Assembly: GCA_965116875.1 (NCBI GenBank)
Contig: OZ220733.1
Coordinates: 1,152,001 to 1,216,000 of the forward strand
DNA: 64,000 bases
Reading direction: 5' to 3'
Source of the DNA: Candidatus Latescibacterota bacterium
GTDB taxonomy: Bacteria > Latescibacterota > UBA2968 > GCA-2709665
In this document: positions 47,714 through 63,937 of the stretch, piece by piece
Position numbering within the stretch: position 1 is the stretch's first letter
How the letters are laid out: each line of letters opens with the position of its first letter
Made by a program: the position numbers and the translations under genes
The notes under the pieces: generated by a model
What the model saw: only the letters and a program-made list of their open reading frames with translations
Told to the model about the DNA's origin: nothing
Databases searched by the model: none

Positions 47714-49915
47714 ATGAGTTCCGACAGAACAGGGACCGGCCACGCCATTTCGACCCCGGACCTATCTGCATCCCGCCCTGGCGCCACCGGCGGCAGGCTG
47801 AACATCAGCAACTTCATCTGGAGCATTGCTGATGATGTCCTGCGAGATGTGTTCGGTCGGGGCAAATACCGGGATGTGATCCTGCCAATGACGGTCATCC
47901 GCCGTCTCGATTCCGTCTTGGAACCTACGAAAGAAGCGGTACTCCAGATGAAAGCCCGGCTCGACGCGGCGGGAGTGACGAACCAGGACGCAGCGCTGCG
48001 CCAGGCATCCGGCGAGGCCTTTTACAACGCCTCACCGTTCAAACTCCGTGATCTGACGTCACGTGCCAGACAGCAGCAGTTACATGCCGACTTTGTGGCT
48101 TACCTCGATGGCTTCTCGCCCAACGTGGTGGAGGTCCTGGAGAGGTTCAAGTTCCGCAATCAGATTCCTGAATTGGTGGAGAACGATTTGCTCGGGTTTC
48201 TACTGGAGAAATTCCTTGATCCTTCGATCAACCTCAGCCCCAAACCGGTGTTAAACGCCGTTGGGTCCGTTCGTCTGGAAGCTCTCGACAACCACGGAAT
48301 GGGCACTGTGTTCGAAGAACTGATCCGTCGGTTCAACGAGGAAAACAACGAGGAGGCCGGAGAGCATTTTACCCCTCGTGACGTCGTACAGCTGATGGCG
48401 CGGTTGATTTTCATACCGGTTGCTGACAAGGTCAAATCAGGCACCTACCTTGTATATGACGGCGCCTGCGGAACCGGCGGGATGCTGACCGTCGCCGAAG
48501 AGACCCTCACCCGGCTTGCAGCCGAGGACGGCAAGGAGGTCTCCGTTCATCTGTATGGCCAGGAGATCAACCCGGAAACCTACGCCATCAGCAAAGCCGA
48601 CCTGATCCTCAAAGGTGAAGGGGTGGAGGCCGACAACATGCGTTATGGCTCGACGCTTGCCGCCGACGCCTTCCCCGCCAATGAGTTCGACTTCATGTTG
48701 TCCAATCCACCCTACGGCAAGAGTTGGAAAGGCGACCTGGAACGCATGGGCGGGAAGTCGGGTATCCGGGACCCCCGATTCATCGTTGAGCATGACGGAG
48801 ATCCGGAATACTCACTCATCACTCGCTCCAGCGACGGACAGATGATGTTTCTGGTCAATATGCTAAGCAAGATGAAACAGGACACACCGCTCGGGAGCCG
48901 TATTGCTGAGGTACACAACGGGAGTTCGCTGTTCACTGGCAACGCCGGTCAGGGCGAGAGCAACATCCGTCGATGGATTATCGAAAACGATTGGCTTGAA
49001 GCGATCGTGGCGCTACCGTTGAACATGTTCTACAACACCGGTATCGCCACTTATATCTGGGTGTTGACAAACCGCAAACCGGAGCATCGGCGCGGCAAGG
49101 TGCAACTCATCGACGCAACACAATGGTCGAAACCGTTGCGCAAGAATCTCGGCAATAAGAACTGCGAGTTGTCGGACGAGGATCTGACGCGTATCTGCGA
49201 TACTTTTCTCGGCTTTGAGGAAAGCGAGCAGTCCAGGATCTTCCCGAACGAGGCATTCGGTTACTGGAGGGTCACAGTTGATCGGCCCTTGCGGCTCTCC
49301 GTTGATCTGTCGGCGGACCATCGCGAACGCTTCCGGTCAACGTGTAGCGACGAAGACGAAGACCCGCTTGCTGACGTCATCGATCGTGTGGCGGCGGTGC
49401 TGGGCCACGGGCCTCACAGAGACTTCAACCGGTTTCTGGACGTCGTCGCAGATTACGCACGCGAGTGCGGCCTGAAGCTGACAGCCGGACGCAAAAAGTT
49501 GATTCAGACTGTCCTTGCATCCCGCGACGATACGGCCGAGCCCGTGATCAAGAAAATCCATCGTACAGGAAACGTGGAAGCGGACCCCATCTGTGGGCTA
49601 TTCCAGGCCACATTAAACGGTCGGAGTCGCGTTGTCGAGTACGAACCCGATACCGAACTGAGAGACACCGAGCAGGTGGCTCTTCTCGAAGACGGCGGCA
49701 TCGAAAGTTTCCTGCGCCGGGAGGTGTTACCCTATGCGCCCGATGCCTGGTACGTCCCGGGCAGTGTCAAGGTCGGATACGAAGTCAGCTTCACGCGCTA
49801 CTTCTACAAACCGCAGCCAATGCGCACGCTGGAAGAAATACGCGCTGACATTCTGTCGCTGGAGAAGGAGACCGAGGGACTATTGGAGGAAATCCTCGGA
49901 GCTGCGGCCGAATAG
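47714..49915 (+). CDS. hsdM: type I restriction-modification methyltransferase subunit M
   Basis: FIWSIADDVLR, AGEHFTPRDVV, YDGACGTGGML (motif I), SNPPY (motif IV), MFYNTGIATYIW, GYEVSFTRYFY. Confidence 0.95.
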   Translation: MSSDRTGTGHAISTPDLSASRPGATGGRLNISNFIWSIADDVLRDVFGRGKYRDVILPMTVIRRLDSVLEPTKEAVLQMKARLDAAGVTNQDAALRQASGEAFYNASPFKLRDLTSRARQQQLHADFVAYLDGFSPNVVEVLERFKFRNQIPELVENDLLGFLLEKFLDPSINLSPKPVLNAVGSVRLEALDNHGMGTVFEELIRRFNEENNEEAGEHFTPRDVVQLMARLIFIPVADKVKSGTYLVYDGACGTGGMLTVAEETLTRLAAEDGKEVSVHLYGQEINPETYAISKADLILKGEGVEADNMRYGSTLAADAFPANEFDFMLSNPPYGKSWKGDLERMGGKSGIRDPRFIVEHDGDPEYSLITRSSDGQMMFLVNMLSKMKQDTPLGSRIAEVHNGSSLFTGNAGQGESNIRRWIIENDWLEAIVALPLNMFYNTGIATYIWVLTNRKPEHRRGKVQLIDATQWSKPLRKNLGNKNCELSDEDLTRICDTFLGFEESEQSRIFPNEAFGYWRVTVDRPLRLSVDLSADHRERFRSTCSDEDEDPLADVIDRVAAVLGHGPHRDFNRFLDVVADYARECGLKLTAGRKKLIQTVLASRDDTAEPVIKKIHRTGNVEADPICGLFQATLNGRSRVVEYEPDTELRDTEQVALLEDGGIESFLRREVLPYAPDAWYVPGSVKVGYEVSFTRYFYKPQPMRTLEEIRADILSLEKETEGLLEEILGAAAE

Positions 49916-52511: not shown

Positions 52512-52991
52512 ATGTCTGATAATGTAAGCCCAAGAACCAGAAGTCGCATGATGTCAGCTATCCGAGGCAAGAACACAAAGGTGGAATTGGAGATTCGTCG
52601 ACGCCTCTTTGAGATGGGTTTTCGATATCGCCTCTACCGAAAGGATCTTCCAGGTACACCGGACCTGGTGTTTCCGAAATATCGCTCCGTGATTTTTGTC
52701 CATGGGTGCTTCTGGCACTACCACGGATGCCACTTATCCGCAATACCTCAGACACGCCGATTATGGTGGATCACGAAACTTCAAGCGAATGCAGATCGTG
52801 ATGCCTTGGCTGTAACTGCGTTGAAGCGACTCCATTGGCGAATCTTGATTGTCTGGGAATGTGGTTTCAGAAGACCCAAGACAGACCGCGCGGGAGCACT
52901 TGATTCAATTGCGACGCTGGCTGCGAAATTCTTGAGATCACAAACGGAATTTTTGGAGATCCCAGGAGCACGATGCGTTCCGACCGAATAG
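52512..52991 (+). CDS. vsr: very short patch repair endonuclease
   Basis: RSRMMSAIRGKNTKVE, GFRYRL, LPGTPDLVF, IFVHGCFWHYHGC, N..RD, WRILIVWEC. Confidence 0.95.
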   Translation: MSDNVSPRTRSRMMSAIRGKNTKVELEIRRRLFEMGFRYRLYRKDLPGTPDLVFPKYRSVIFVHGCFWHYHGCHLSAIPQTRRLWWITKLQANADRDALAVTALKRLHWRILIVWECGFRRPKTDRAGALDSIATLAAKFLRSQTEFLEIPGARCVPTE

Positions 52992-53119
52992 AAAATTGAA
53001 GTGTGTGTTTCACCAAGCTCAAATGTGCCACCTGACGGCTGCGAACACTCGCAAAAAGTATCAAGGGCGATGGCGAATCACTTGCAGATTGATATGGTAG
53101 GAAGGTTGTGTTTGGAGAA

Positions 53120-54382
53120 ATGAACGAAGCACCACGATTTCTGGATCTTTTCGCCGGTGCCGGTGGGCTGTCCGAAGGATTCATACAGGCTGGATACGTG
53201 CCGGTTGCTCATGTTGACTCAGATCAGGCAGCGTGCTTCACACTTCGTACGCGAATGGCGTACCATTGGCTGAAATCCAACGGTCGTACGGATTTTTACG
53301 GTGATTATCTCAATGGCACGCTAGACCGCAAGGCGTTTTATGCTGAGGTACCATCCGATGTGATCTCATCGGTCATTCATGCTGAAATCGGCGATGCGAC
53401 GCTGCCGGAAATTTTCAGAAGAGTTGATGACTTAGTCGGCGACAGAGGACTCGACGTGATTGTCGGTGGCCCACCCTGTCAGGCATATTCCTTAATTGGC
53501 CGCTCACGTGTTGGAAAGGAGATGAAAAGTGACAAAAGGAATTATCTGTACAGCTACTATGCGGAATTCCTGAGACGATACGCGCCGCGGTTTTTCGTCT
53601 TTGAGAATGTTATCGGCCTTCTTTCGGCCAAGAATGAAGACAACAGTCACTATTTCGACGCAATGAAACGTCTATTTCGTCAGTTCGGCTATGAATCCGA
53701 GTCCAGAACGCTATCTGCCGAAGATTATGGAGTGTTGCAGAGACGACGACGGATAATTCTCGTTGGCCGCAGAGGCAAGGAAACCGGGTTTTACCCGGAA
53801 CCCAACAGGTGGAACCCCGACGCCTGTGTAAAGGAAGTATTCGTGGACTTGCCTGCGCTTTCCGCAGGTGAAGGATCTACGGGGCCGTGTGATATTGACC
53901 AATACTGCGGAAGTTGGCAATTCGACGCTAATGTCAGAAATGAAGCACTTCCCGTTACTTGGCATCAGGCACGACCCCACACGGATCAAGATCTCGAAAT
54001 CTACCGCATCGCGGTTGATCTGTGGGACTCGAAGCAAATCCGCTTGAAGTACAATCTGCTTGAGAATCGTCTCACGACACACAAAAATCAAGGTTCATTT
54101 TTGGATAGATTCAAGGTTGTCGCTTCGAATCTACCTTACTCACAGGCTGTGGTTGCGCATATCGCCAAGGATGGCCACTATTACATTCATCCAGATAGGG
54201 ATCAAAACAGATCGATTACACCACGGGAGGCCGCTCGTTTACAGACATTCCCCGATGATTATTTCTTTGAGAGTAGCAATCGCGTACCTCGCCGAACTCC
54301 TGCATTTCGCCAGATCGGCAATGCAGTACCGGTGCTCTTGGCCCGAAAATTGGCAGAAAAGTTGAAGGAGGTTCTGTCGTGA
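53120..54382 (+). CDS. dcm: C5 DNA cytosine methyltransferase
   Basis: DLFAGAGG, GGPPCQ, FENV, Q.R.R, R.ITPREAARLQTFPD, QIGNAVP. Confidence 0.95.
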   Translation: MNEAPRFLDLFAGAGGLSEGFIQAGYVPVAHVDSDQAACFTLRTRMAYHWLKSNGRTDFYGDYLNGTLDRKAFYAEVPSDVISSVIHAEIGDATLPEIFRRVDDLVGDRGLDVIVGGPPCQAYSLIGRSRVGKEMKSDKRNYLYSYYAEFLRRYAPRFFVFENVIGLLSAKNEDNSHYFDAMKRLFRQFGYESESRTLSAEDYGVLQRRRRIILVGRRGKETGFYPEPNRWNPDACVKEVFVDLPALSAGEGSTGPCDIDQYCGSWQFDANVRNEALPVTWHQARPHTDQDLEIYRIAVDLWDSKQIRLKYNLLENRLTTHKNQGSFLDRFKVVASNLPYSQAVVAHIAKDGHYYIHPDRDQNRSITPREAARLQTFPDDYFFESSNRVPRRTPAFRQIGNAVPVLLARKLAEKLKEVLS

Positions 54383-56529
54383 GTCCAAGCGGAGCATACA
54401 GGATACGACCTGCCGGCAGGCACATCCTTACCATCGGCCGCGACTTGATTCAAGACGCGTACGCGGCCGTCGTGGAACTGGTCAAGAACGCGTACGATGC
54501 CGATTCGAGCAACGTGAATATCGATTTCGCCGCAAATCCGGACAAAGACGGATATACTCTTGTCGTTTGCGACGATGGTCACGGCATGTCCAGAGATGAT
54601 GTAATCAACAAGTGGATGGTACCATCAACCACCGACAAGCTTGACAGGCGCAGAAGTCCTGCCGGAAGGATCATGCAGGGACGCAAAGGTGTGGGACGCT
54701 ATGCAGCTTCCATTCTGGGAACGGACATGCTCCTGGAGACTACAACCGCCACAGGAGAAAAGACAACCGTATATGTCGAGTGGCGGGAATTTGCAGATGC
54801 TCAATACTTGGACGATGTAGAGATCCTGATTGAGACTGCGAAAGTTGCCGAACAGGCAGGTACTCGCCTCACAATGAACGGAGACAAAGCGCTTCTTGAT
54901 GAATGGAACAGTCACCAGTTTCGCAAACTACAATTCGAACTGAAAAAGCTGATTTCGCCCGTGGCGTCCGCTCTCAGCAATGAAAAATTCCGCGTTAATC
55001 TGCAGACAAGAGGCTTTGCTGAAACAGAAGACATCACAGATTCTATCGAACCCTTCCCGCTCTTCGACCTCTTTGACTACAGGATTAGAGGTAAGGTTGG
55101 TGTTGATGGCACGGGAGACTTAGTGTATTCGATACAGAAGGTCCAAAACGCCGTCGACGAAAATATACGAATCGCGCTAGAGAGACCGACAGGATGTGGT
55201 GAGTTGGATTTCGACATCCGGGTGTATGACAGGGAAAAGGACGCGATAGATTCTTTGATCCAGCGCGGTTTGAAGGATGATTCAGGCCACTATGTTGGAA
55301 AACTCGAGACAAGGCGGCTACTGAACTACTACAATGGCATTGGTGTTTATCGAAATGGATTCCGTATACGGCCACTGGGTGATGCGGAATTCGACTGGTT
55401 AAAACTCAATGAGAGAAGAGTGCAGAATCCTTCAATGAGGATAGGCAGCAATCAGGCAATTGGATATGTGCAGATTCAATCCGATGATAAGTCCGGACTC
55501 ATCGAAAAGAGTGCAAGGGATGGACTAAGGGAAAACAGCGCCTTTGATCGACTTAAGGAAATAACCCGAGAAATAATTACAAACCTCGAAGTGCGACGTT
55601 TCGATTACAGACGAAGGGCTGGTCTGGGCAAACCGGCCCTAAAAGTCGAACGAGAGTTGGAGAGTCTTTTTTCGTACGATGATTTGAGACAGGAATTAGA
55701 GACACAACTCACCAAGGCGAACGTCGGCAAGACAACCACGAACGAAATCATCGCGGCAGTCAATCGCGAAGAGGAAGATAAGAACCGGATCGCAGATGAA
55801 ATCAAACAGGCGGTTGCCATCTATCAGGGCCAAGCGACCCTGGGAAAAATCATAAACGTGATTCTTCATGAAGGCAGAAGACCACTCAGTTACTTCCGAA
55901 ACGAAATATCAAACCTCAGATTCTGGTACGAATCGCTTACGGAAACCAATGACCTGCGGAAACTTGAGAAAATTATGCCAATTGTGGATGGTGTAGCAGA
56001 CAATGCAGAAATCTTCGTAAAGCTCTTCAACAGACTTGATCCCCTAGCAGCAGGAAAACGATCCAAGAAAGAACCACTGCAACTGACGGTCACGATACGG
56101 AAGATACTTGAAGTATTCGGAGAAGAAATGAAGACGCACAATGTGAATTCTCAAGTTACAGGTTCTGACGGCTTTGAATTCTCCTGCTGGGCTCAGGACA
56201 TTTATTCGATTTTCACGAATCTCGTCGATAACAGCCTTTACTGGATGATTGAAAAACCCACACGGAACCGTAGAATTATGATCGAGGTCGCCACAGATGG
56301 CGATGAACTTAGCCATATCGATTACCACGACACCGGTCCGGGGATTGACCGGAGTCTAATTGAAAGCGAAGTAATCTTCGAACCTGAGTTTTCAACTAAG
56401 CCAGACGGCACGGGTCTGGGCCTAGCGATTGCGGGTGAATCGGCCACCAGAAACAATCTGGAACTCCGTGCTTTCGAATCGGAAAACGGAGCTTGGTTCA
56501 GGCTGCAACCACGAACGGAGAGTGCATAA
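54379..56529 (+). CDS. MORC-like GHKL ATPase fused to a histidine kinase
   Basis: N-terminal ELVKNAYDAD, DDGHGM, GRKGVGR, GTRL; C-terminal H-box ILHEGRRP, N-box NLVDNS, G1 DTGPGI, F-box IFEPEFSTK, G2 GTGLGL. No transmembrane segment. Confidence 0.88.
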   Translation: MSPSGAYRIRPAGRHILTIGRDLIQDAYAAVVELVKNAYDADSSNVNIDFAANPDKDGYTLVVCDDGHGMSRDDVINKWMVPSTTDKLDRRRSPAGRIMQGRKGVGRYAASILGTDMLLETTTATGEKTTVYVEWREFADAQYLDDVEILIETAKVAEQAGTRLTMNGDKALLDEWNSHQFRKLQFELKKLISPVASALSNEKFRVNLQTRGFAETEDITDSIEPFPLFDLFDYRIRGKVGVDGTGDLVYSIQKVQNAVDENIRIALERPTGCGELDFDIRVYDREKDAIDSLIQRGLKDDSGHYVGKLETRRLLNYYNGIGVYRNGFRIRPLGDAEFDWLKLNERRVQNPSMRIGSNQAIGYVQIQSDDKSGLIEKSARDGLRENSAFDRLKEITREIITNLEVRRFDYRRRAGLGKPALKVERELESLFSYDDLRQELETQLTKANVGKTTTNEIIAAVNREEEDKNRIADEIKQAVAIYQGQATLGKIINVILHEGRRPLSYFRNEISNLRFWYESLTETNDLRKLEKIMPIVDGVADNAEIFVKLFNRLDPLAAGKRSKKEPLQLTVTIRKILEVFGEEMKTHNVNSQVTGSDGFEFSCWAQDIYSIFTNLVDNSLYWMIEKPTRNRRIMIEVATDGDELSHIDYHDTGPGIDRSLIESEVIFEPEFSTKPDGTGLGLAIAGESATRNNLELRAFESENGAWFRLQPRTESA

Positions 56530-57602
56530 TGAGCCAATTTAGGCTGCTTTTGGTTGAAGATGAAGAGCAGGAAATCCAAATATGCGAGAATTCTATTGCA
56601 AGGTATTTCGACCAAAAAGGAAGAAAAATCGAAATGGATGTATGTCGAAGTGTTGAAGAAGCTCTAAAGACACTGGATAGCACATTTGATGGTGCAATCA
56701 TCGACCTAAAACTGGCAGATCAAGGTGACGAAGGAAGCCAGGTAGTTGAAGAGATCGAGGAGTCTTTCTTTCGCATTCCGGTCGCGATATTGACAGGAAC
56801 ACCTGATAACGCGAGTGACGACTTTAAATACATCGGAGTCTTCACAAAAGGGGAAATTGAATACATAGATTTATTCGATCGTTTCTGGGGAATCTACATT
56901 ACAGGAATGACACGAATCGTAGGTGGCCGCGGTCTTATCGAAGAGACGTTGAGTAGAGTGTTTCGCGAAAACCTTCTACCTAAGACGAAACAATGGGAAG
57001 CCTATGGAGAGCAGGATTCTACCAGGACCGAGAAGGCCCTTCTTCGTCATACACTTAACCATCTGTCTCAGCTTATTGAAGAAGACGAGGATAGCTGTTT
57101 TCCCGAAGAAGTGTATTTAGCACCTCCTCTTTCCGACGATATTTCAACTGGGAGTATACTTAAAGATCTAGAAGATGAAGCGTGGTTCGTCGTCATGAAC
57201 CCCACTTGCGATCTTGTCGTACGGGAAGATGGCGAGCGCAATACGGACTGGATTCTCCTCGCCGCAGTTGATCCTGCAAACGAGTTATTTCCATGGTTTG
57301 ACGATGCAAATCTGAGCAAGGCAAAGCGGGGAGAGTTGAAAAGCGCGTTTACCAACAAGAAGGCACCTTATTATCACTGGCTTCCCAAAACCGATTTCTT
57401 TAGCGGTGGATTTTTAAATTTCAGGAAAGTCTCGACGATGCCAGAAAAGTCGTTATCTGAGAGATTCGCCTTACCTCCTGGAATTCAGATATCGCCATCT
57501 TTCACAAAGGATGTAATAGCACGGTTTTCCTCATACTACGCCCGTCAGGGTCAACCAGCCATAGACTACAGCAAGTTTCTTGCATCAGGTGCCGAAGTTT
57601 AA
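56529..57602 (+). CDS. response-regulator receiver domain protein with uncharacterised C-terminal domain
   Basis: LLVEDE, DGAIIDLKL (phospho-Asp), ILTG, FTK; C-terminal VMNPTCDL and RFSSYYARQGQP; TAATG overlap with the kinase. Confidence 0.85.
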   Translation: MSQFRLLLVEDEEQEIQICENSIARYFDQKGRKIEMDVCRSVEEALKTLDSTFDGAIIDLKLADQGDEGSQVVEEIEESFFRIPVAILTGTPDNASDDFKYIGVFTKGEIEYIDLFDRFWGIYITGMTRIVGGRGLIEETLSRVFRENLLPKTKQWEAYGEQDSTRTEKALLRHTLNHLSQLIEEDEDSCFPEEVYLAPPLSDDISTGSILKDLEDEAWFVVMNPTCDLVVREDGERNTDWILLAAVDPANELFPWFDDANLSKAKRGELKSAFTNKKAPYYHWLPKTDFFSGGFLNFRKVSTMPEKSLSERFALPPGIQISPSFTKDVIARFSSYYARQGQPAIDYSKFLASGAEV

Positions 57603-57667: not shown

Positions 57668-59044
57668 ATGAAGTGCGATTCCAATTGTTATCCCTTAACC
57701 AGTACCTCAGGCATCTCTTGGATTGGCAACGTTCCGCGTCATTGGAAGTTAGTTAGGTTCCGAACCATACTTTCTGAAAAAACGGAACGAAATAGGTCCG
57801 ATTTACCTCTCTTGTCCGTGGTACGTGAGAAGGGAGTAATTCTGAGGGATGTAGATAATTGGGACGAGAACCCAAATTTCATTCCTGACGACCTGTCCAA
57901 TTACAAGGTCGTGGGCAAGGGTCAATTTGCCATGAACAAGATGAAAGCTTGGCAAGGCTCTTATGGCGTTTCACAGTACGAAGGCATAGTAAGTCCGGCG
58001 TACTTTGTCTTTGACGTAAATGAGGTAATGGCTGACTATTTTCACGTTGCCGTCCGCTCAAAGGCGTTCGTTCCTTTTTTTCGTCAAGCATCAGACGGCG
58101 TTCGAATTGGGCAATGGGATTTGTCACAGACACGAATGCGGGAGATTCCTTTTTGGGTCCCACCTCTCCCTGAACAAGCCGCAATCGTCCGCTATCTTGA
58201 CCAAATTGGTGACTGTATCAACCGGTATGTTAACGCGAAGAAGAGGCTTATTCGGTTGCTTGCGGAAAAAAAGCAAGCCGTCATTGATCACGCCGTCACA
58301 CGTGGCCTTGACCGTGACGTCCCATCAAAGCCTTCGGGGGTAGAGTCGATCGGCGGTGTCCCTCGGCATTGGGGATTTAAAAGGCTTGGGCACATTGCTA
58401 CGAAGTTTGGTAGTGGGATTACTCCTCGAGGCGGATCAACAGTTTATAGGGAGTGTGGCGTTCCCTTCTTGAGGAGTCAAAACATCCATTTCGACGGCCT
58501 CCGAATACGGGACGTTGCTCGAATTGCACCAAGTCTCCACCGGGAACTTTCTGGTACCCACGTAAAGCCTGGTGACGTTCTACTGAATATAACAGGCGCA
58601 TCAATCGGGCGCGTGTGCTCGGTTCCTGACGACTTCGCCGAAGCCAATGTCAACCAGCACGTATGCATAATTCGCCCTGCCCAAGACCACATACACCCTA
58701 CACTGCTTGCAGCTTTTTTGTCCACTACAATGATGCAGCGAGAGATCCAATTTGAACAGAGCGGGGCATCCCGAGAGGGCCTAACCATACAATCGATTCG
58801 CAACTTCCGAGTAATCGTGCCGCCGCTCTCGGAACAGTCCTGTATAGTTCGCTATCTCGACAAGACAACTGCCAGAATTGAAGCTACTATCGGCCGCACG
58901 CGCCGCCAAATAGAGTTAATAGAGAAATACCGTATACGGCTGATCGCAGATGTGGTCACTGGCAAATTGGATGTACGCGAAGCGGCAGTAAATCTGTCAG
59001 ATGAAGTGGGGGACTTGGGAAGCGCCGGATGTAGCGAAAACTAA
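57668..59044 (+). CDS. hsdS: type I restriction-modification specificity subunit S
   Basis: SGISWIGNVPRHW / SGVESIGGVPRHW, two PPL.EQ..IV.YLD conserved regions, AVTRGLD, LIADVVTGKLDVR. Confidence 0.93.
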   Translation: MKCDSNCYPLTSTSGISWIGNVPRHWKLVRFRTILSEKTERNRSDLPLLSVVREKGVILRDVDNWDENPNFIPDDLSNYKVVGKGQFAMNKMKAWQGSYGVSQYEGIVSPAYFVFDVNEVMADYFHVAVRSKAFVPFFRQASDGVRIGQWDLSQTRMREIPFWVPPLPEQAAIVRYLDQIGDCINRYVNAKKRLIRLLAEKKQAVIDHAVTRGLDRDVPSKPSGVESIGGVPRHWGFKRLGHIATKFGSGITPRGGSTVYRECGVPFLRSQNIHFDGLRIRDVARIAPSLHRELSGTHVKPGDVLLNITGASIGRVCSVPDDFAEANVNQHVCIIRPAQDHIHPTLLAAFLSTTMMQREIQFEQSGASREGLTIQSIRNFRVIVPPLSEQSCIVRYLDKTTARIEATIGRTRRQIELIEKYRIRLIADVVTGKLDVREAAVNLSDEVGDLGSAGCSEN

Positions 59045-62195: not shown

Positions 62196-62931
62196 GATCT
62201 TACATGCACGAGAATACAACTTGAGTGGCACAGTCTCCGTGACGCAATACAGATCGACAAATTCTTTATTTATAGTAATATACCTTGATTGACGGGTACT
62301 TGACTGAGACCGCTCCATAGATAGGTGTCACAGGTAGCATTACTCCTTTCGCAAGTGATCGGCTTCTTGGACGTGATCAATCATCCGTTGGGTAGCGACG
62401 TTTCTGATTCACTTTCAATCAACGCCCGCATGCTTGTATTTGAGAAGACGGCCAATCAGGAATTGTGCCATTAGACAAGAAACGTCTCAAATGGCATAAA
62501 ATCGGCATAATTCTGGCATTATTGATTCTGTAAGTATCTGTTTCTTAGGGATTTTTTCGCTCTGTCTTTTACGTCAAAACATAATCCTTCAGACAGAAGG
62601 GTCGTAATTCATATGTTCGGTGAACAGATTTACCGGTGATTATAAAGACCGGTTCTGTTTTAGCACAGGCGCGATTGCTGTCCCACCAATTATGCTGATC
62701 GATATTGGGAATTCCCCAGCGACGGAGTCTGGATTTCTAATCGCTGCCAATTGATCGCGAATTGCCAAAACGATAGCTGAATCCATTAACCCATTAATTT
62801 TATTGTATTTATTTAATTGACGGGTAATTGACTGGATCCGCTGCTTGACCACCCGCGTCAGCGGCCGACTCATCTCGAACACGAACGGCGGCCAGCCTCT
62901 CTTCAGAAAGTCCCAGACTTTAGTCAGAGCC

Positions 62932-63257
62932 ATGCCAAGCCGACGGACAAAATAAGCTTGCAGCCGAGTGTCCTGCAGTAGGCTCGAGAACGTGCCCGCG
63001 TCAGTCGCGACGAACTGGCTCGCGAAATGCAGGGCAACGTCGACCGCGTCGTTGAGTGGGAGGTAACCGGCTAAGTCATCGTCGCCCGGGCAGACGGGCT
63101 CGCCGAACGCACCCACACCCTTCTGGATTTGCTGTACCTCTCACTGGCACCCGACGACAGCCTGTCCATTCCAGATTTCAGGACACGCGACGCTGACGCA
63201 GATCCACGACGTCCGAGCCTCGACCTGCCGGAAACGGTCTATGCGATACAACCCTGA
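62932..63257 (+). pseudogene. decayed XRE-HTH / ImmA-IrrE metallopeptidase family gene (N-terminal fragment)
   Basis: Hand translation from 62952: ISLQPSVLQ*ARERARVSRDELAREMQGNVDRVVEWEVTG*...LAERTHT...LYL...IPDFRT...RRPSLDLPETVYAIQ. In-frame stops at 62979 and 63072; truncated before the peptidase domain. Confidence 0.7.
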
Positions 63258-63280
63258 CAGAAATGGATGCGAGTCGACCT

Positions 63281-63937
63281 ATGGCAGTACCCAACAATCC
63301 AAAGATCTACCATATCGTCCATTTTGACAGGTTGCCTTCAATAATCGCTGCCGGTGGCCTCTGGTGCGACGCGAAGATCGAGGAGTTAGGGGAAACCGGG
63401 ACAACCATAGGAATGAGCAATATCAAGAAACGCCGACTTGGTTTGAAACTAACCACCCACCCGACGCTGAACGTCGGGGAATGCGTTCCATTTTACTTTT
63501 GCCCTCGATCCGTTATGCTCTACGTGATCTACAGGGGGAATGACCCGGAGTTGGCCTACCGCGGTGGGCAGGGACCAATTGTTCATTTGGAGGCTGATTT
63601 ACGGAAAACCGTTGCTTGGGCAGAGCAGCACAATCTTCGATGGGCGTTCACCCTGTCAAATGCCGGTGCATACTACTTCGAAGACCGGTGTGACTTGGGA
63701 CAATTGTCCGAGATCAATTGGAGCGCGGTACGAGCGAATAAATGGTCCGGCATCGGCGTCCCTGTGTCCCACAAGGAAGGCAAACAGGCGGAATTCCTGA
63801 TTGAGCGGCAGTTCCCCTGGGAACTGATCTCCCGTATCGGCGTATACACCTCGCGAGTCCACGACCAAACCCTTGCAGCCCTTGAAGCAGCTACGCACAA
63901 GCCACCGGTCGAGATCAAACGCGACTGGTACTATTGA
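63281..63937 (+). CDS. darT: DarT (DUF4433) DNA ADP-ribosyltransferase toxin
   Basis: KIYHIVH..RLPSI...GL, CVPFYFCPRSVMLY, FTLSNAG, KQAEFL (catalytic Glu), C-terminal WYY. Confidence 0.92.
   Translation: MAVPNNPKIYHIVHFDRLPSIIAAGGLWCDAKIEELGETGTTIGMSNIKKRRLGLKLTTHPTLNVGECVPFYFCPRSVMLYVIYRGNDPELAYRGGQGPIVHLEADLRKTVAWAEQHNLRWAFTLSNAGAYYFEDRCDLGQLSEINWSAVRANKWSGIGVPVSHKEGKQAEFLIERQFPWELISRIGVYTSRVHDQTLAALEAATHKPPVEIKRDWYY

Follow-up and report, generated by a model that had tools for sequence, protein, structure and literature searches.

A predicted MazF/CcdB/Kid-type toxin fold in the output domain of a receiver protein encoded with a C5 cytosine methyltransferase and a paraMORC-type kinase

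We analysed a 64,000-nucleotide stretch of the genome of a Candidatus Latescibacterota bacterium (contig OZ220733.1 of assembly GCA_965116875.1, positions 1,152,001 to 1,216,000; hereafter the window). An initial annotation, made from the sequence alone, had singled out a block of four genes in this window, encoding a very-short-patch-repair endonuclease (Vsr), a C5 cytosine DNA methyltransferase (Dcm), a 716-aa kinase-like protein and a 357-aa response-regulator-like receiver protein. Our main finding is that the C-terminal output domain of the receiver protein is predicted to have a MazF/CcdB/Kid-type toxin fold. This fold is what is new here, as the gene layout of such blocks has been known since 2021. 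We start from the anatomy of the genes, the conservation of their catalytic motifs, the fold of the effector domain, and the co-inheritance and translational coupling of three of the genes. These observations are consistent with a defence module linked to methylation, where the place of a DNase would be taken by a His-Asp phosphorelay that switches on a MazF-fold toxin, a reading to which we give slightly less than an even chance.

All four genes are co-oriented on the plus strand (Table 1) and, as initially annotated, the last three are coupled. The stop of Dcm and the start of the kinase share GTGA, a 4-nt overlap, and the kinase stop and receiver start share TAATG, a 1-nt overlap; both were read from the sequence and, like the gene coordinates, agree with the annotation. 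Vsr, separated from Dcm by a gap of 116 nt, scores 140.8 bits on TIGR00632 (cut-off 97.85). Dcm has a second in-frame start (ATG at 53120) and keeps its catalytic motifs, including the GGPPCQ motif with Cys124 (53477-53479) and the ENV motif; its best PADLOC model is PDLC02649 'DrmMII' (E 7e-159). The claim that the block has no recognisable restriction nuclease was borne out by Pfam, PADLOC and NCBIfam scans, in which neither the kinase nor the receiver protein matched a recognisable DNase family. Within the block, only the GHKL head of the kinase resembles restriction endonuclease (REase) families. Of the components of a type II restriction-modification (R-M) system, a methyltransferase (MTase) with catalytic motifs is present, and a recognisable endonuclease partner was not found. 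There is no small antitoxin open reading frame (ORF) beside the receiver gene, whose neighbours are the kinase gene and hsdS. A promoter and terminator scan of the region from 49.8 to 59.3 kb gave counts no higher than in shuffled sequence, and no tRNA was found within the window.

The receiver protein consists of an N-terminal receiver (REC) domain, two long helices with an acidic linker, and a barrel (Table 1). The phospho-acceptor Asp recognised in the initial annotation is D59, and the REC domain keeps it together with E10, D11, D54, T89 and K107 (K or R in relatives) across alignments that include 77 rows of receiver (RR) proteins. The PF00072 match of the window protein is weak (E 4e-4, below cut-off), and this model is matched by 39 of the 96 family representatives. 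Foldseek nevertheless aligns the N-terminus with receiver domains (E ~1e-5), and everything that a PDB profile search with the family alignment returned was a receiver domain (RcpA, ArlR and others).

The C-terminal 230 residues have no Pfam or NCBIfam name, and none of the 96 representatives matches Pfam in this region. A whole-receiver model built from 25 sequences had a pLDDT of 74.6, and because its Foldseek search returned receiver domains only, the C-domain was folded separately. The resulting AF2 model covers residues 126-357, was based on an alignment of 96 representatives with 29-60% identity to the protein of the window, and reached a pLDDT of 95.9 and a pTM of 0.86, with helices at model residues 11-37 and 39-60 (pLDDT >90). 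Comparing it with 48,161 chains by VIA-align yielded a top 12 made up entirely of MazF/CcdB/Kid/CptN toxins (Z 10.8 to 7.3); the next match after the toxins was unrelated and helical, at Z 5.5. The best match was Staphylococcus aureus MazF (4mzm_A, Z 10.8, rmsd 3.0, 104 aligned), and others included MazF-mt3 (Z 10.7), CcdB (1vub_A, Z 9.9, rmsd 2.6, 95/95 target residues aligned), Kid (Z 9.4), CptN (Z 7.3) and AbiQ (Z 4.8). Foldseek independently ranked MazF first (E 5.6e-4, TM on target 0.66-0.72) and also matched Vibrio fischeri CcdB. The initial annotation had noted that the C-terminus is not a recognisable helix-turn-helix (HTH). This agrees with our results: an HTH output was rejected, as neither an HTH nor another DNA-binding family was detected in the receiver protein and the C-domain is predicted to fold as a toxin barrel. 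The same annotation had proposed that the C-domain is the effector of a two-component anti-phage system that would replace the usual REase. The idea of an effector gains a toxin-fold candidate, and the fold points to an RNA- or gyrase-directed toxin and not to a DNase simply taking the place of the REase.

Conservation within the barrel is concentrated in a set of mostly polar residues. P225, C227, D228, H283, K327, R332, R339, Q340, G341 and P343 are family-invariant. Among these, C227, D228, H283, K327, R332, R339 and Q340 are unchanged in 75 of the 77 RR rows, the two exceptions being decayed loci, and the same polar set is invariant or at least 90% conserved over the 96 representatives. 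From this conservation we read the polar set as a putative active site on a toxin scaffold. This invariant set (C227, D228, H283, K327, R332, R339) is the family's own. An ESM Atlas search with residues 195-357 returned unnamed clusters at 0.91. Prediction of a C-domain homodimer scored 0.33 against a mark of 0.42, with one control at 0.38.

The receiver-protein family is large, with 1209 matches at E<=1e-3 among 7135 candidates. Among representative clusters at 50% identity, the C-domain has 687 matches at E<=1e-3, a number that falls to 421 when the threshold is set to 1e-10 and to 133 when it is set to 1e-30. Most of the 150 clusters listed have the C-domain at residues ~125-350 of a protein of ~350-390 aa. 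Exceptions among those listed are rows of smaller size, including several that begin inside the C-domain, and P0140, a 571-aa protein in which the N-terminal half of a C5-MTase (PF00145, 105-244) is joined to the MazF-fold C-domain (347-564). P0140 looks like the product of a deletion that took out kinase and receiver domain, or else like a chimera of the assembly. In a phage collection, tblastn found no match to the receiver protein.

The 716-aa protein contains the two GHKL sites claimed in the initial annotation, with Pfam matches to HATPase_c_3 at residues 29-139 (E 1.1e-19) and to HATPase_c (PF02518) at residues 607-712 (E 7.4e-18). The motifs of the N-terminal site (I, E33/N37/D40; II, D65xG67xG69; III, G101xKG104xG106), the H-box His497-Glu498 and the boxes of the catalytic ATP-binding (CA) domain (N614/N618; G1, D651xG653xG655; G2, G677xG679xG681) are invariant in 30/30 aligned relatives, and a 65-sequence alignment showed the same conservation. 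This invariance indicates that both ATP sites and the phospho-His are under selection. The annotated C-terminal kinase transmitter was recovered by profile alignment and by the invariant His497, although neither Pfam HisKA nor HEF_HK matches the protein even at E<=10. With a profile of 30 sequences, residues 463-716 align with the dimerisation/phosphotransfer (DHp) and CA domains of solved kinases (4gcz, E 2.6e-12; 3a0r, ZraS and HK853), and His497 aligns with the HEF_HK His of a paralogue in the same genome that is described below.

The best match of the GHKL head is the NCBIfam BbrUII/HgiDII REase family NF050001 (residues 19-207 against positions 13-197, E 3.8e-16), at 58.7 bits far below the cut-off of 550. 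The head also matches PADLOC REase_II (type II REase) models, and the N-terminal part has weak PDB profile matches to HtpG, MORC3 and MutL. On the basis of these matches we consider the head to be a paraMORC-type GHKL domain. Between the head and the DHp helices, residues ~208-470 contain the conserved motifs GVYRNGFRIRPLGD and EKSARDGL, both shared with the HEF_HK paralogue. As had been annotated, there is no membrane sensor, since neither the kinase nor the receiver protein has a membrane segment (maximum 19-residue Kyte-Doolittle means of 1.17 and 0.85, respectively). The 716-aa protein thus appears to be a paraMORC-type head joined to a histidine-kinase transmitter that would carry out phosphotransfer. 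Judged by sequence, the pair has the elements of a canonical two-component system, namely a DHp His with N, G1 and G2 boxes in the kinase and the acidic pair, Asp, Thr and Lys of REC in its partner.

The arrangement of the genes is far beyond chance. Scanning one genome per species identified 79 related loci, which carry a dozen or more different phylum-level labels. In 74 of these the receiver gene is immediately preceded by a kinase homologue, and the other five are fragments. Methylase linkage was counted over 69 informative loci, with 10 left out owing to contig ends or decay. An intact orthologous C5-MTase is located directly upstream of the kinase in 50/69 loci, a remnant was found in five, and the gene is absent from 14. 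The 53 adjacent MTase matches comprise these 50 and three partial ones, and two further remnants are non-adjacent. The remnants include a copy with in-frame stops (L006), two genes replaced by an HNH_2 gene (L049, L055) and two C-terminal stubs (L060, L062). Over residues ~5-422, the window Dcm is 55-73% identical to the upstream MTases of its relatives. Vsr homologues were found in 34/79 loci, and in 32 the gene comes immediately after that of the receiver, whereas the window Vsr lies upstream of the other three genes instead. A link of the kinase and receiver to Dcm, Vsr and defence islands, which the initial annotation had made a check of its proposal, is therefore observed, given these counts and the defence-island setting described below.

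Translational coupling is likewise common among the relatives. In 51 of 67 loci the kinase stop codon overlaps the start of the receiver gene, in 64 the two are no more than 9 nt apart, and the stop of the upstream ORF overlaps the kinase start in 44/63. In 46 loci, pairwise identities co-vary between the histidine kinase (HK) and Dcm (Spearman 0.85) and between HK and RR (0.81). The median pairwise identities in this set are 64.5% for Dcm, 63.5% for HK and 49.5% for RR, with no Dcm pair below 51%. The upstream linkage, the coupling and the co-varying identities together indicate that Dcm, kinase and receiver have travelled as one lineage.

Some relatives differ in the genes that accompany the pair. 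An HNH or HNH_2 endonuclease gene occupies the place of the methylase at L049:4442-5802, L055:4757-5829 and L062:4234-5833; according to PMC8011034, HNH_2 is the commonest nuclease near the sister family introduced below as well. An N6/N4 methylase of ~540 aa follows the module in seven loci from Poribacteria and related genomes (L031, L035, L052, L057, L062, L066, L072), in two of which (L035, L052) it is in turn followed by a ResIII helicase, as in type III-like R-M. In L063, an XhoI-family R-M pair lies downstream.

The module also appears to be mobile. Kinases are 96-100% identical in metagenome-assembled genomes (MAGs) labelled as different phyla, which implies recent transfer. For example, near-identical Dcm-kinase(-receiver) genes occur in Desulfuromonadaceae, Syntrophobacteraceae, Lentisphaeria and Thiolinea MAGs (L004, L005, L007, L012), reflecting either very recent horizontal transfer or mis-binned contigs; the L012 receiver is only 77-80% identical to the others although its kinase is 96-100% identical. 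The kinase-receiver pair was found on five plasmid records, and on a Bacillus plasmid a dcm gene lies downstream of it. Cultured carriers, or plasmids from cultured strains, are Chlorobaculum thiosulfatiphilum DSM 249 (L043), Enterobacter mori and Bacillus sp. H8-1. The only locus with a deleted kinase is L039 (7891-9572), where the gene is reduced to its last ~35 codons. Its receiver gene has also lost the conserved C-terminal RFSSYYARQGQP motif, and the ORF runs into Vsr.

The initial annotation had allowed that similar neighbourhoods may already have been noted computationally, which proved to be the case for a sister family. Bellieny-Rabelo, Pretorius and Moleleki (2021, Genome Biol Evol; PMC8011034) described computationally an architecture consisting of a C5-MTase, a HATPase_c_3+HEF_HK+HATPase_c kinase, a Response_reg_2 protein and then Vsr. 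They counted 644 such regions from 628 strains and gave the linkage as 91.6%. In that paper, the kinase is related to paraMORCs, the genes are enriched beside R-M genes, a regulatory two-component system is proposed, and the receiver protein is said to have 'no other known domains', its C-terminal part being given neither a domain nor a role. The sister family and the window share the gene order MTase-kinase-receiver with Vsr adjacent, and a soluble kinase-like protein of paraMORC ancestry with HATPase_c_3, DHp and HATPase_c. In contrast to the sister family, the window pair does not match PF19191/PF19192 even at E<=10, and none of the 96 family representatives matches PF19192. None of four carrier names of the window family occurs in the single supplementary text file of PMC8011034 covered by our search. 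Apart from the 2021 paper, only two passing mentions of HEF_HK/Response_reg_2 were found in the literature.

A whole-genome search for PF19191 identified another locus at 100.1 bits and did not find the window pair. This second module (G000:C1:~3300293-3306564; L085:7294-13564) is on the minus strand in the order Vsr, Dcm, kinase, receiver, and encodes a 371-aa C5-MTase, a 986-aa HATPase_c_3+HEF_HK+HATPase_c kinase and a 571/583-aa Response_reg_2 protein. Its flanking genes are NOV_C- and HSDR_N-like. By its domain content, the second module is a true member of the PF19191/PF19192 families, and one genome thus carries both sister families. The two kinases are 25% identical (N-terminal E 2e-26, C-terminal E 1e-13) with their H-boxes aligned, the two Dcm proteins are 26% identical (E 6e-24), and the two Vsr proteins 55%. 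The window kinase is shorter (716 against 986 aa), as is the window receiver protein, which has a REC of canonical length (357 against 571-583 aa), and BLASTP found no significant similarity between the two receiver proteins of the genome. Still, the C-terminal ~170 residues of Response_reg_2 bear the signature of the window barrel, with a PxCD motif (...QPVCDSVR...), a His further along and a basic helix at the C-terminus. An hhalign comparison of the full receiver-family alignments gave a probability of 3.7% (E 0.012), and only a trimmed comparison of the window barrel with the Response_reg_2 C-terminus reached E 9.3e-4 (probability 22%, 131 columns), so that homology of the effectors is suggested, not proven. 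We conclude from these sequence comparisons that the window pair is a sister family to HEF_HK/Response_reg_2, that is, a new sequence family of a described architecture, and that the two probably share an effector domain.

Several other known systems resemble parts of the module. Prokaryotic paraMORCs, as surveyed by Iyer, Abhiman and Aravind (2008; PMC2292703), carry swappable C-terminal nuclease or TIR effectors and belong to R-M operons linked to Dcm and Vsr. The window kinase is similar to these proteins in its GHKL head with intact motifs and its operonic association with Dcm and Vsr. It differs in that its C-terminal module is a predicted kinase transmitter, with the putative effector on a separate receiver, in place of a RecB-type nuclease or TIR domain. 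Among two-component systems, the closest parallel is Detocs (Rousset et al. 2023, 10.1101/2023.01.24.525353), whose phage defence requires the kinase His, the receiver Asp and the effector site. A two-component anti-phage system is not new as a concept, Detocs being an experimentally shown example. In Detocs, a histidine kinase again works with a receiver on which a cell-damaging, swappable effector replaces a DNA-binding output. Unlike the window module, Detocs has a TPR-sensing kinase, a third buffer receiver DtcB and a PNP ATP-nucleosidase effector, and it is not linked to a methylase. We rejected membership of Detocs, as the window module has no TPR, third receiver gene or PNP. PADLOC matched the window kinase and receiver to REase_II and TmtA models and the candidate PDC-M60B only, with no Detocs model among them.

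DISARM class 2 was also rejected. Only the name of the MTase model fits it, no drmA, drmB or drmC was found among 12 proteins scanned from 45.9 to 64 kb, and the DrmMII model was also the best PADLOC match for the MTases of 4/4 relatives tested. The toxins MazF, Kid (PemK) and CcdB, and likewise ToxN, AbiQ and CptN, have their fold in common with receiver residues ~203-341. Several toxins of the MazF/Kid/CcdB/ToxN type act in abortive infection or plasmid addiction. The window barrel differs from them in its size (~140 aa), an inserted helix and a different conserved polar set. Where type II and type III toxin systems have a MazE, Kis or CcdA antitoxin or an antitoxin RNA, the window barrel has an attached receiver domain instead. 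No report of a receiver fused to a MazF/PemK/CcdB-type domain was found in the literature. The DefensePredictor paper (PMC13092281) shows a predicted, unvalidated system labelled 'HATPase' and 'REC', which may or may not be the window family.

The block is located in a low-GC island (45-52% against 60-64% GC) that is threaded through a type I R-M system (Table 1). Between hsdM and hsdS lie a TIR-like gene, a Lit-like gene and the Vsr-Dcm-kinase-receiver block, and between hsdS and hsdR lie a STAND NTPase gene, the 158-aa ORF and darT, so that the type I genes are split apart. The gene for the 312-aa protein with TIR and deoxyribosyltransferase likeness probably serves in defence, encoding a TIR-like NADase or nucleosidase. 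The STAND NTPase resembles Avs-type defence genes; it equals the HsdR of relatives in length, yet is unrelated to HsdR. The stretch of ~1.1 kb that separates the end of the window from hsdR is where a DarG partner of DarT would be located. In the relatives, neighbouring genes include type I and III R-M, TIR, AAA_21, Cap4-nuclease, toxin-antitoxin (TA) and AbiJ genes.

Table 1. Genes and domains of the four-gene block and of the surrounding island. Positions refer to the 64,000-nucleotide window unless marked otherwise.
Feature	Position	Strand	Evidence or remark
Vsr very-short-patch-repair endonuclease, 159 aa	52512..52991	+	PF03852 E 3.2e-29; TIGR00632; PADLOC Vsr E 1.3e-32
C5 cytosine DNA methyltransferase (Dcm), 424 aa	53108(GTG)..54382	+	PF00145 E 2.2e-54; TIGR00675 155 bits
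Soluble 716-aa paraMORC-type GHKL ATPase fused to histidine-kinase transmitter (predicted)	54379..56529	+	HATPase_c_3 + HATPase_c
N-terminal GHKL (Bergerat) ATPase domain	54436..54999	+	kinase residues ~20-207
DHp (H-box) helices	55786..55968	+	kinase residues ~470-530; His497-Glu498 at 55867-55872
Catalytic ATP-binding (CA) domain	56176..56526	+	kinase residues ~600-716
357-aa response-regulator-like receiver protein	56529(ATG)..57602	+	start as in homologues
Receiver (REC) domain	56529..56903	+	receiver residues 1-125; phospho-acceptor D59 at 56703-56705
Two long helices and acidic linker	56904..57134	+	helices ~136-185; ...EDEDxCFPEEVYLxPP (E194, Y196)
MazF/CcdB/Kid-fold barrel (predicted)	57135..57551	+	receiver residues ~203-341; C227-D228 at 57207-57212
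hsdM	47714-49915		type I R-M
TIR/deoxyribosyltransferase-like protein, 312 aa	50044-50982	+	C-terminal part: PF05014 E 1.1e-6; PADLOC TIR effector model E 3.9e-11
Lit-like peptidase U49, 334 aa	51262-52266	+	PADLOC Lit E 1.8e-25; NCBIfam Lit phage exclusion protein E 3.1e-36, below cut-off
hsdS	57668-59044		type I R-M; directly after receiver gene
STAND NTPase, 1023 aa	59124-62195	+	nSTAND3 E 2.3e-6; weak LmuA/Cap4-like N-terminal match
158-aa ORF	62640-63116	-	no family match
DarT ssDNA ADP-ribosyltransferase	63263-63937	+	PF14487 E 4.4e-63
hsdR	G000:C1:~1217411		just beyond window end

In the mechanism that we propose, Dcm, the kinase and the receiver-effector would form a three-gene functional unit with Vsr as a companion. 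The cytoplasmic paraMORC-type GHKL ATPase with its putative transducer region would be the sensor, its DHp/CA transmitter replacing the nuclease or TIR ends of other paraMORCs. Dcm would mark the cell's own DNA and so keep the paraMORC module silent, and Vsr would repair T:G mismatches arising from 5-methylcytosine. When triggered, the kinase would autophosphorylate on His497 and the phosphate would pass to Asp59 of the receiver, whose output is a predicted MazF/CcdB/Kid-fold toxin-like barrel with a conserved polar set instead of a DNA-binding domain. Phosphorylation may relieve an auto-inhibition of the barrel that the helical hairpin and the acidic PEE linker could exert, an arrangement that, speculatively, recalls the acidic antitoxin tails that occupy MazF. 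The barrel would then harm a core process, most likely by RNA cleavage and less so by gyrase poisoning, leading to growth arrest or abortive infection. What the analysis shows is the anatomy of the genes, their conserved catalytic motifs, the modelled effector fold, and the co-inheritance and coupling of Dcm, kinase and receiver, whereas the phosphotransfer, the toxicity of the effector, the direction of control, the methylation signal and the anti-phage function are all inferred. A more specific version, in which the paraMORC reads C5-methylation, the relay fires a receiver-gated MazF-fold RNase, and HEF_HK/Response_reg_2 has the same effector and belongs to one class with the window family, seems doubtful to us and is put forward tentatively.

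A number of observations weigh against a phosphorelay-controlled toxin tied to methylation. The main evidence against a strict R-M logic is the existence of methylase-less pairs: in 14 of the 69 informative loci, the kinase-receiver pair is intact and the orthologous MTase is missing. Type I R-M loci surround eight of these pairs, and for five the two nearest ORFs on each side include no MTase. Apart from L032, where a different MTase is present, every one of these loci falls within Poribacteria clades. According to the kinase tree, lacking the methylase is a derived state, and such loci cluster together. One clade of eight Poribacteria loci has the order HsdS-TIR-kinase-receiver-AAA_21-HsdR, and a clade of four others has no methylase among the two nearest ORFs on each side. 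The Enterobacter mori plasmid also carries the pair with no Dcm remnant, next to an AbiJ-NTD4 gene. The 14 loci and this plasmid show that the pair can persist without a dedicated adjacent methylase. Furthermore, the barrel is linked to toxins by its modelled fold only, and a shared fold does not fix function; no sequence profile ties the C-domain to PemK/MazF/CcdB, either in Pfam at E<=10 or among PDB profiles. In the kinase, no methyl-reading or sequence-reading domain was identified, and the sequence does not show whether phosphorylation activates the barrel or silences it. Finally, we found no experiment in print on any member of the window family, and likewise none on the sister family.

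Other explanations can account for part of these data. The pair might be an addiction system acting by post-segregational killing, in which the kinase serves as the antitoxin, through constant phosphorylation or as a phosphatase, and loss of the island, or falling levels of ATP or kinase, would free the toxin. It would then stabilise the Dcm/Vsr island rather than sense invaders. A barrel fold typical of TA systems, the absence of a separate antitoxin gene, the mobility of the module across phylum labels and plasmids, and the persistence of the pair without a methylase in some lineages are all in line with this. However, a TA-like pair needs neither a co-evolving, translationally coupled methylase, as found in 50/69 loci, nor a large conserved paraMORC ATPase with intact motifs, and we consider addiction unlikely. 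L039, with its deleted kinase and disrupted receiver C-terminus, fits addiction and the proposed defence module equally. Alternatively, the relay could be the same and the effector a CcdB-like poison of gyrase or another DNA enzyme, causing DNA breaks and thereby coming nearer to restriction in its outcome. CcdB is indeed among the best structural matches, in both VIA-align and Foldseek, and the partner genes all act on DNA. Yet the invariant cluster of Cys-Asp, His, Lys and Arg resembles a catalytic site more than the protein-binding surface of CcdB, and most of the structural matches, including the best, are RNases (MazF, Kid, CptN, AbiQ), which makes a gyrase poison quite unlikely.

Two further explanations would change the signal or the outcome. 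The kinase-receiver pair could monitor the methylase or the R-M complex, be it Dcm or type I, as a guard, with the paraMORC-kinase firing when a phage anti-restriction protein disables the guarded enzyme. PrrC, which is silenced by EcoprrI, is an analogue. The position of the pair inside a type I R-M system, both in the window and in the clade of eight Poribacteria loci, agrees with a guard, which would explain the linkage to two kinds of methylation system. On the other hand, in five loci and on one plasmid the pair lacks an R-M gene as a neighbour, there is no evidence of physical contact, and simple co-inheritance fits the Dcm co-evolution equally well, so we see only a slim chance for it. 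The chance is just as slim, in our view, that the pair is a non-lethal regulator, as was proposed for the sister family in the discussion of PMC8011034. Here the kinase would read a cytoplasmic cue such as the nucleotide pool or DNA damage, and the barrel, bound to nucleic acid or a partner protein, would adjust how strongly Dcm, Vsr or R-M genes in the neighbourhood are expressed or how active they are. Nucleic acids are among the possible ligands of SH3-like barrels, and PMC2292703 cites a report that MutL works with Vsr, which makes a GHKL-Vsr repair link conceivable. Against regulation speak the lack of a detectable HTH or other DNA-binding family, the solved relatives of the fold, which are toxins and not regulators, the occurrence of the pair without an R-M gene beside it, and the defence-island context.

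If the proposed defence module is real, self/non-self discrimination by methylation would be wired through a His-Asp relay to an RNA- or gyrase-directed toxin and not to a DNase. Three well-studied fields, namely R-M systems, two-component signalling and MazF/CcdB toxins, would thereby be connected. A first concrete output would also be known for a widespread and so far uncharacterised gene module, with 687 clusters here and 628 strains carrying the sister family. A receiver-gated MazF-fold domain would represent a new, antitoxin-free control of this toxin fold. The kinase would be a bacterial example of a MORC-type ATPase with a sensor role whose output is phosphorylation, and this may bear on how eukaryotic MORCs read epigenetic marks.

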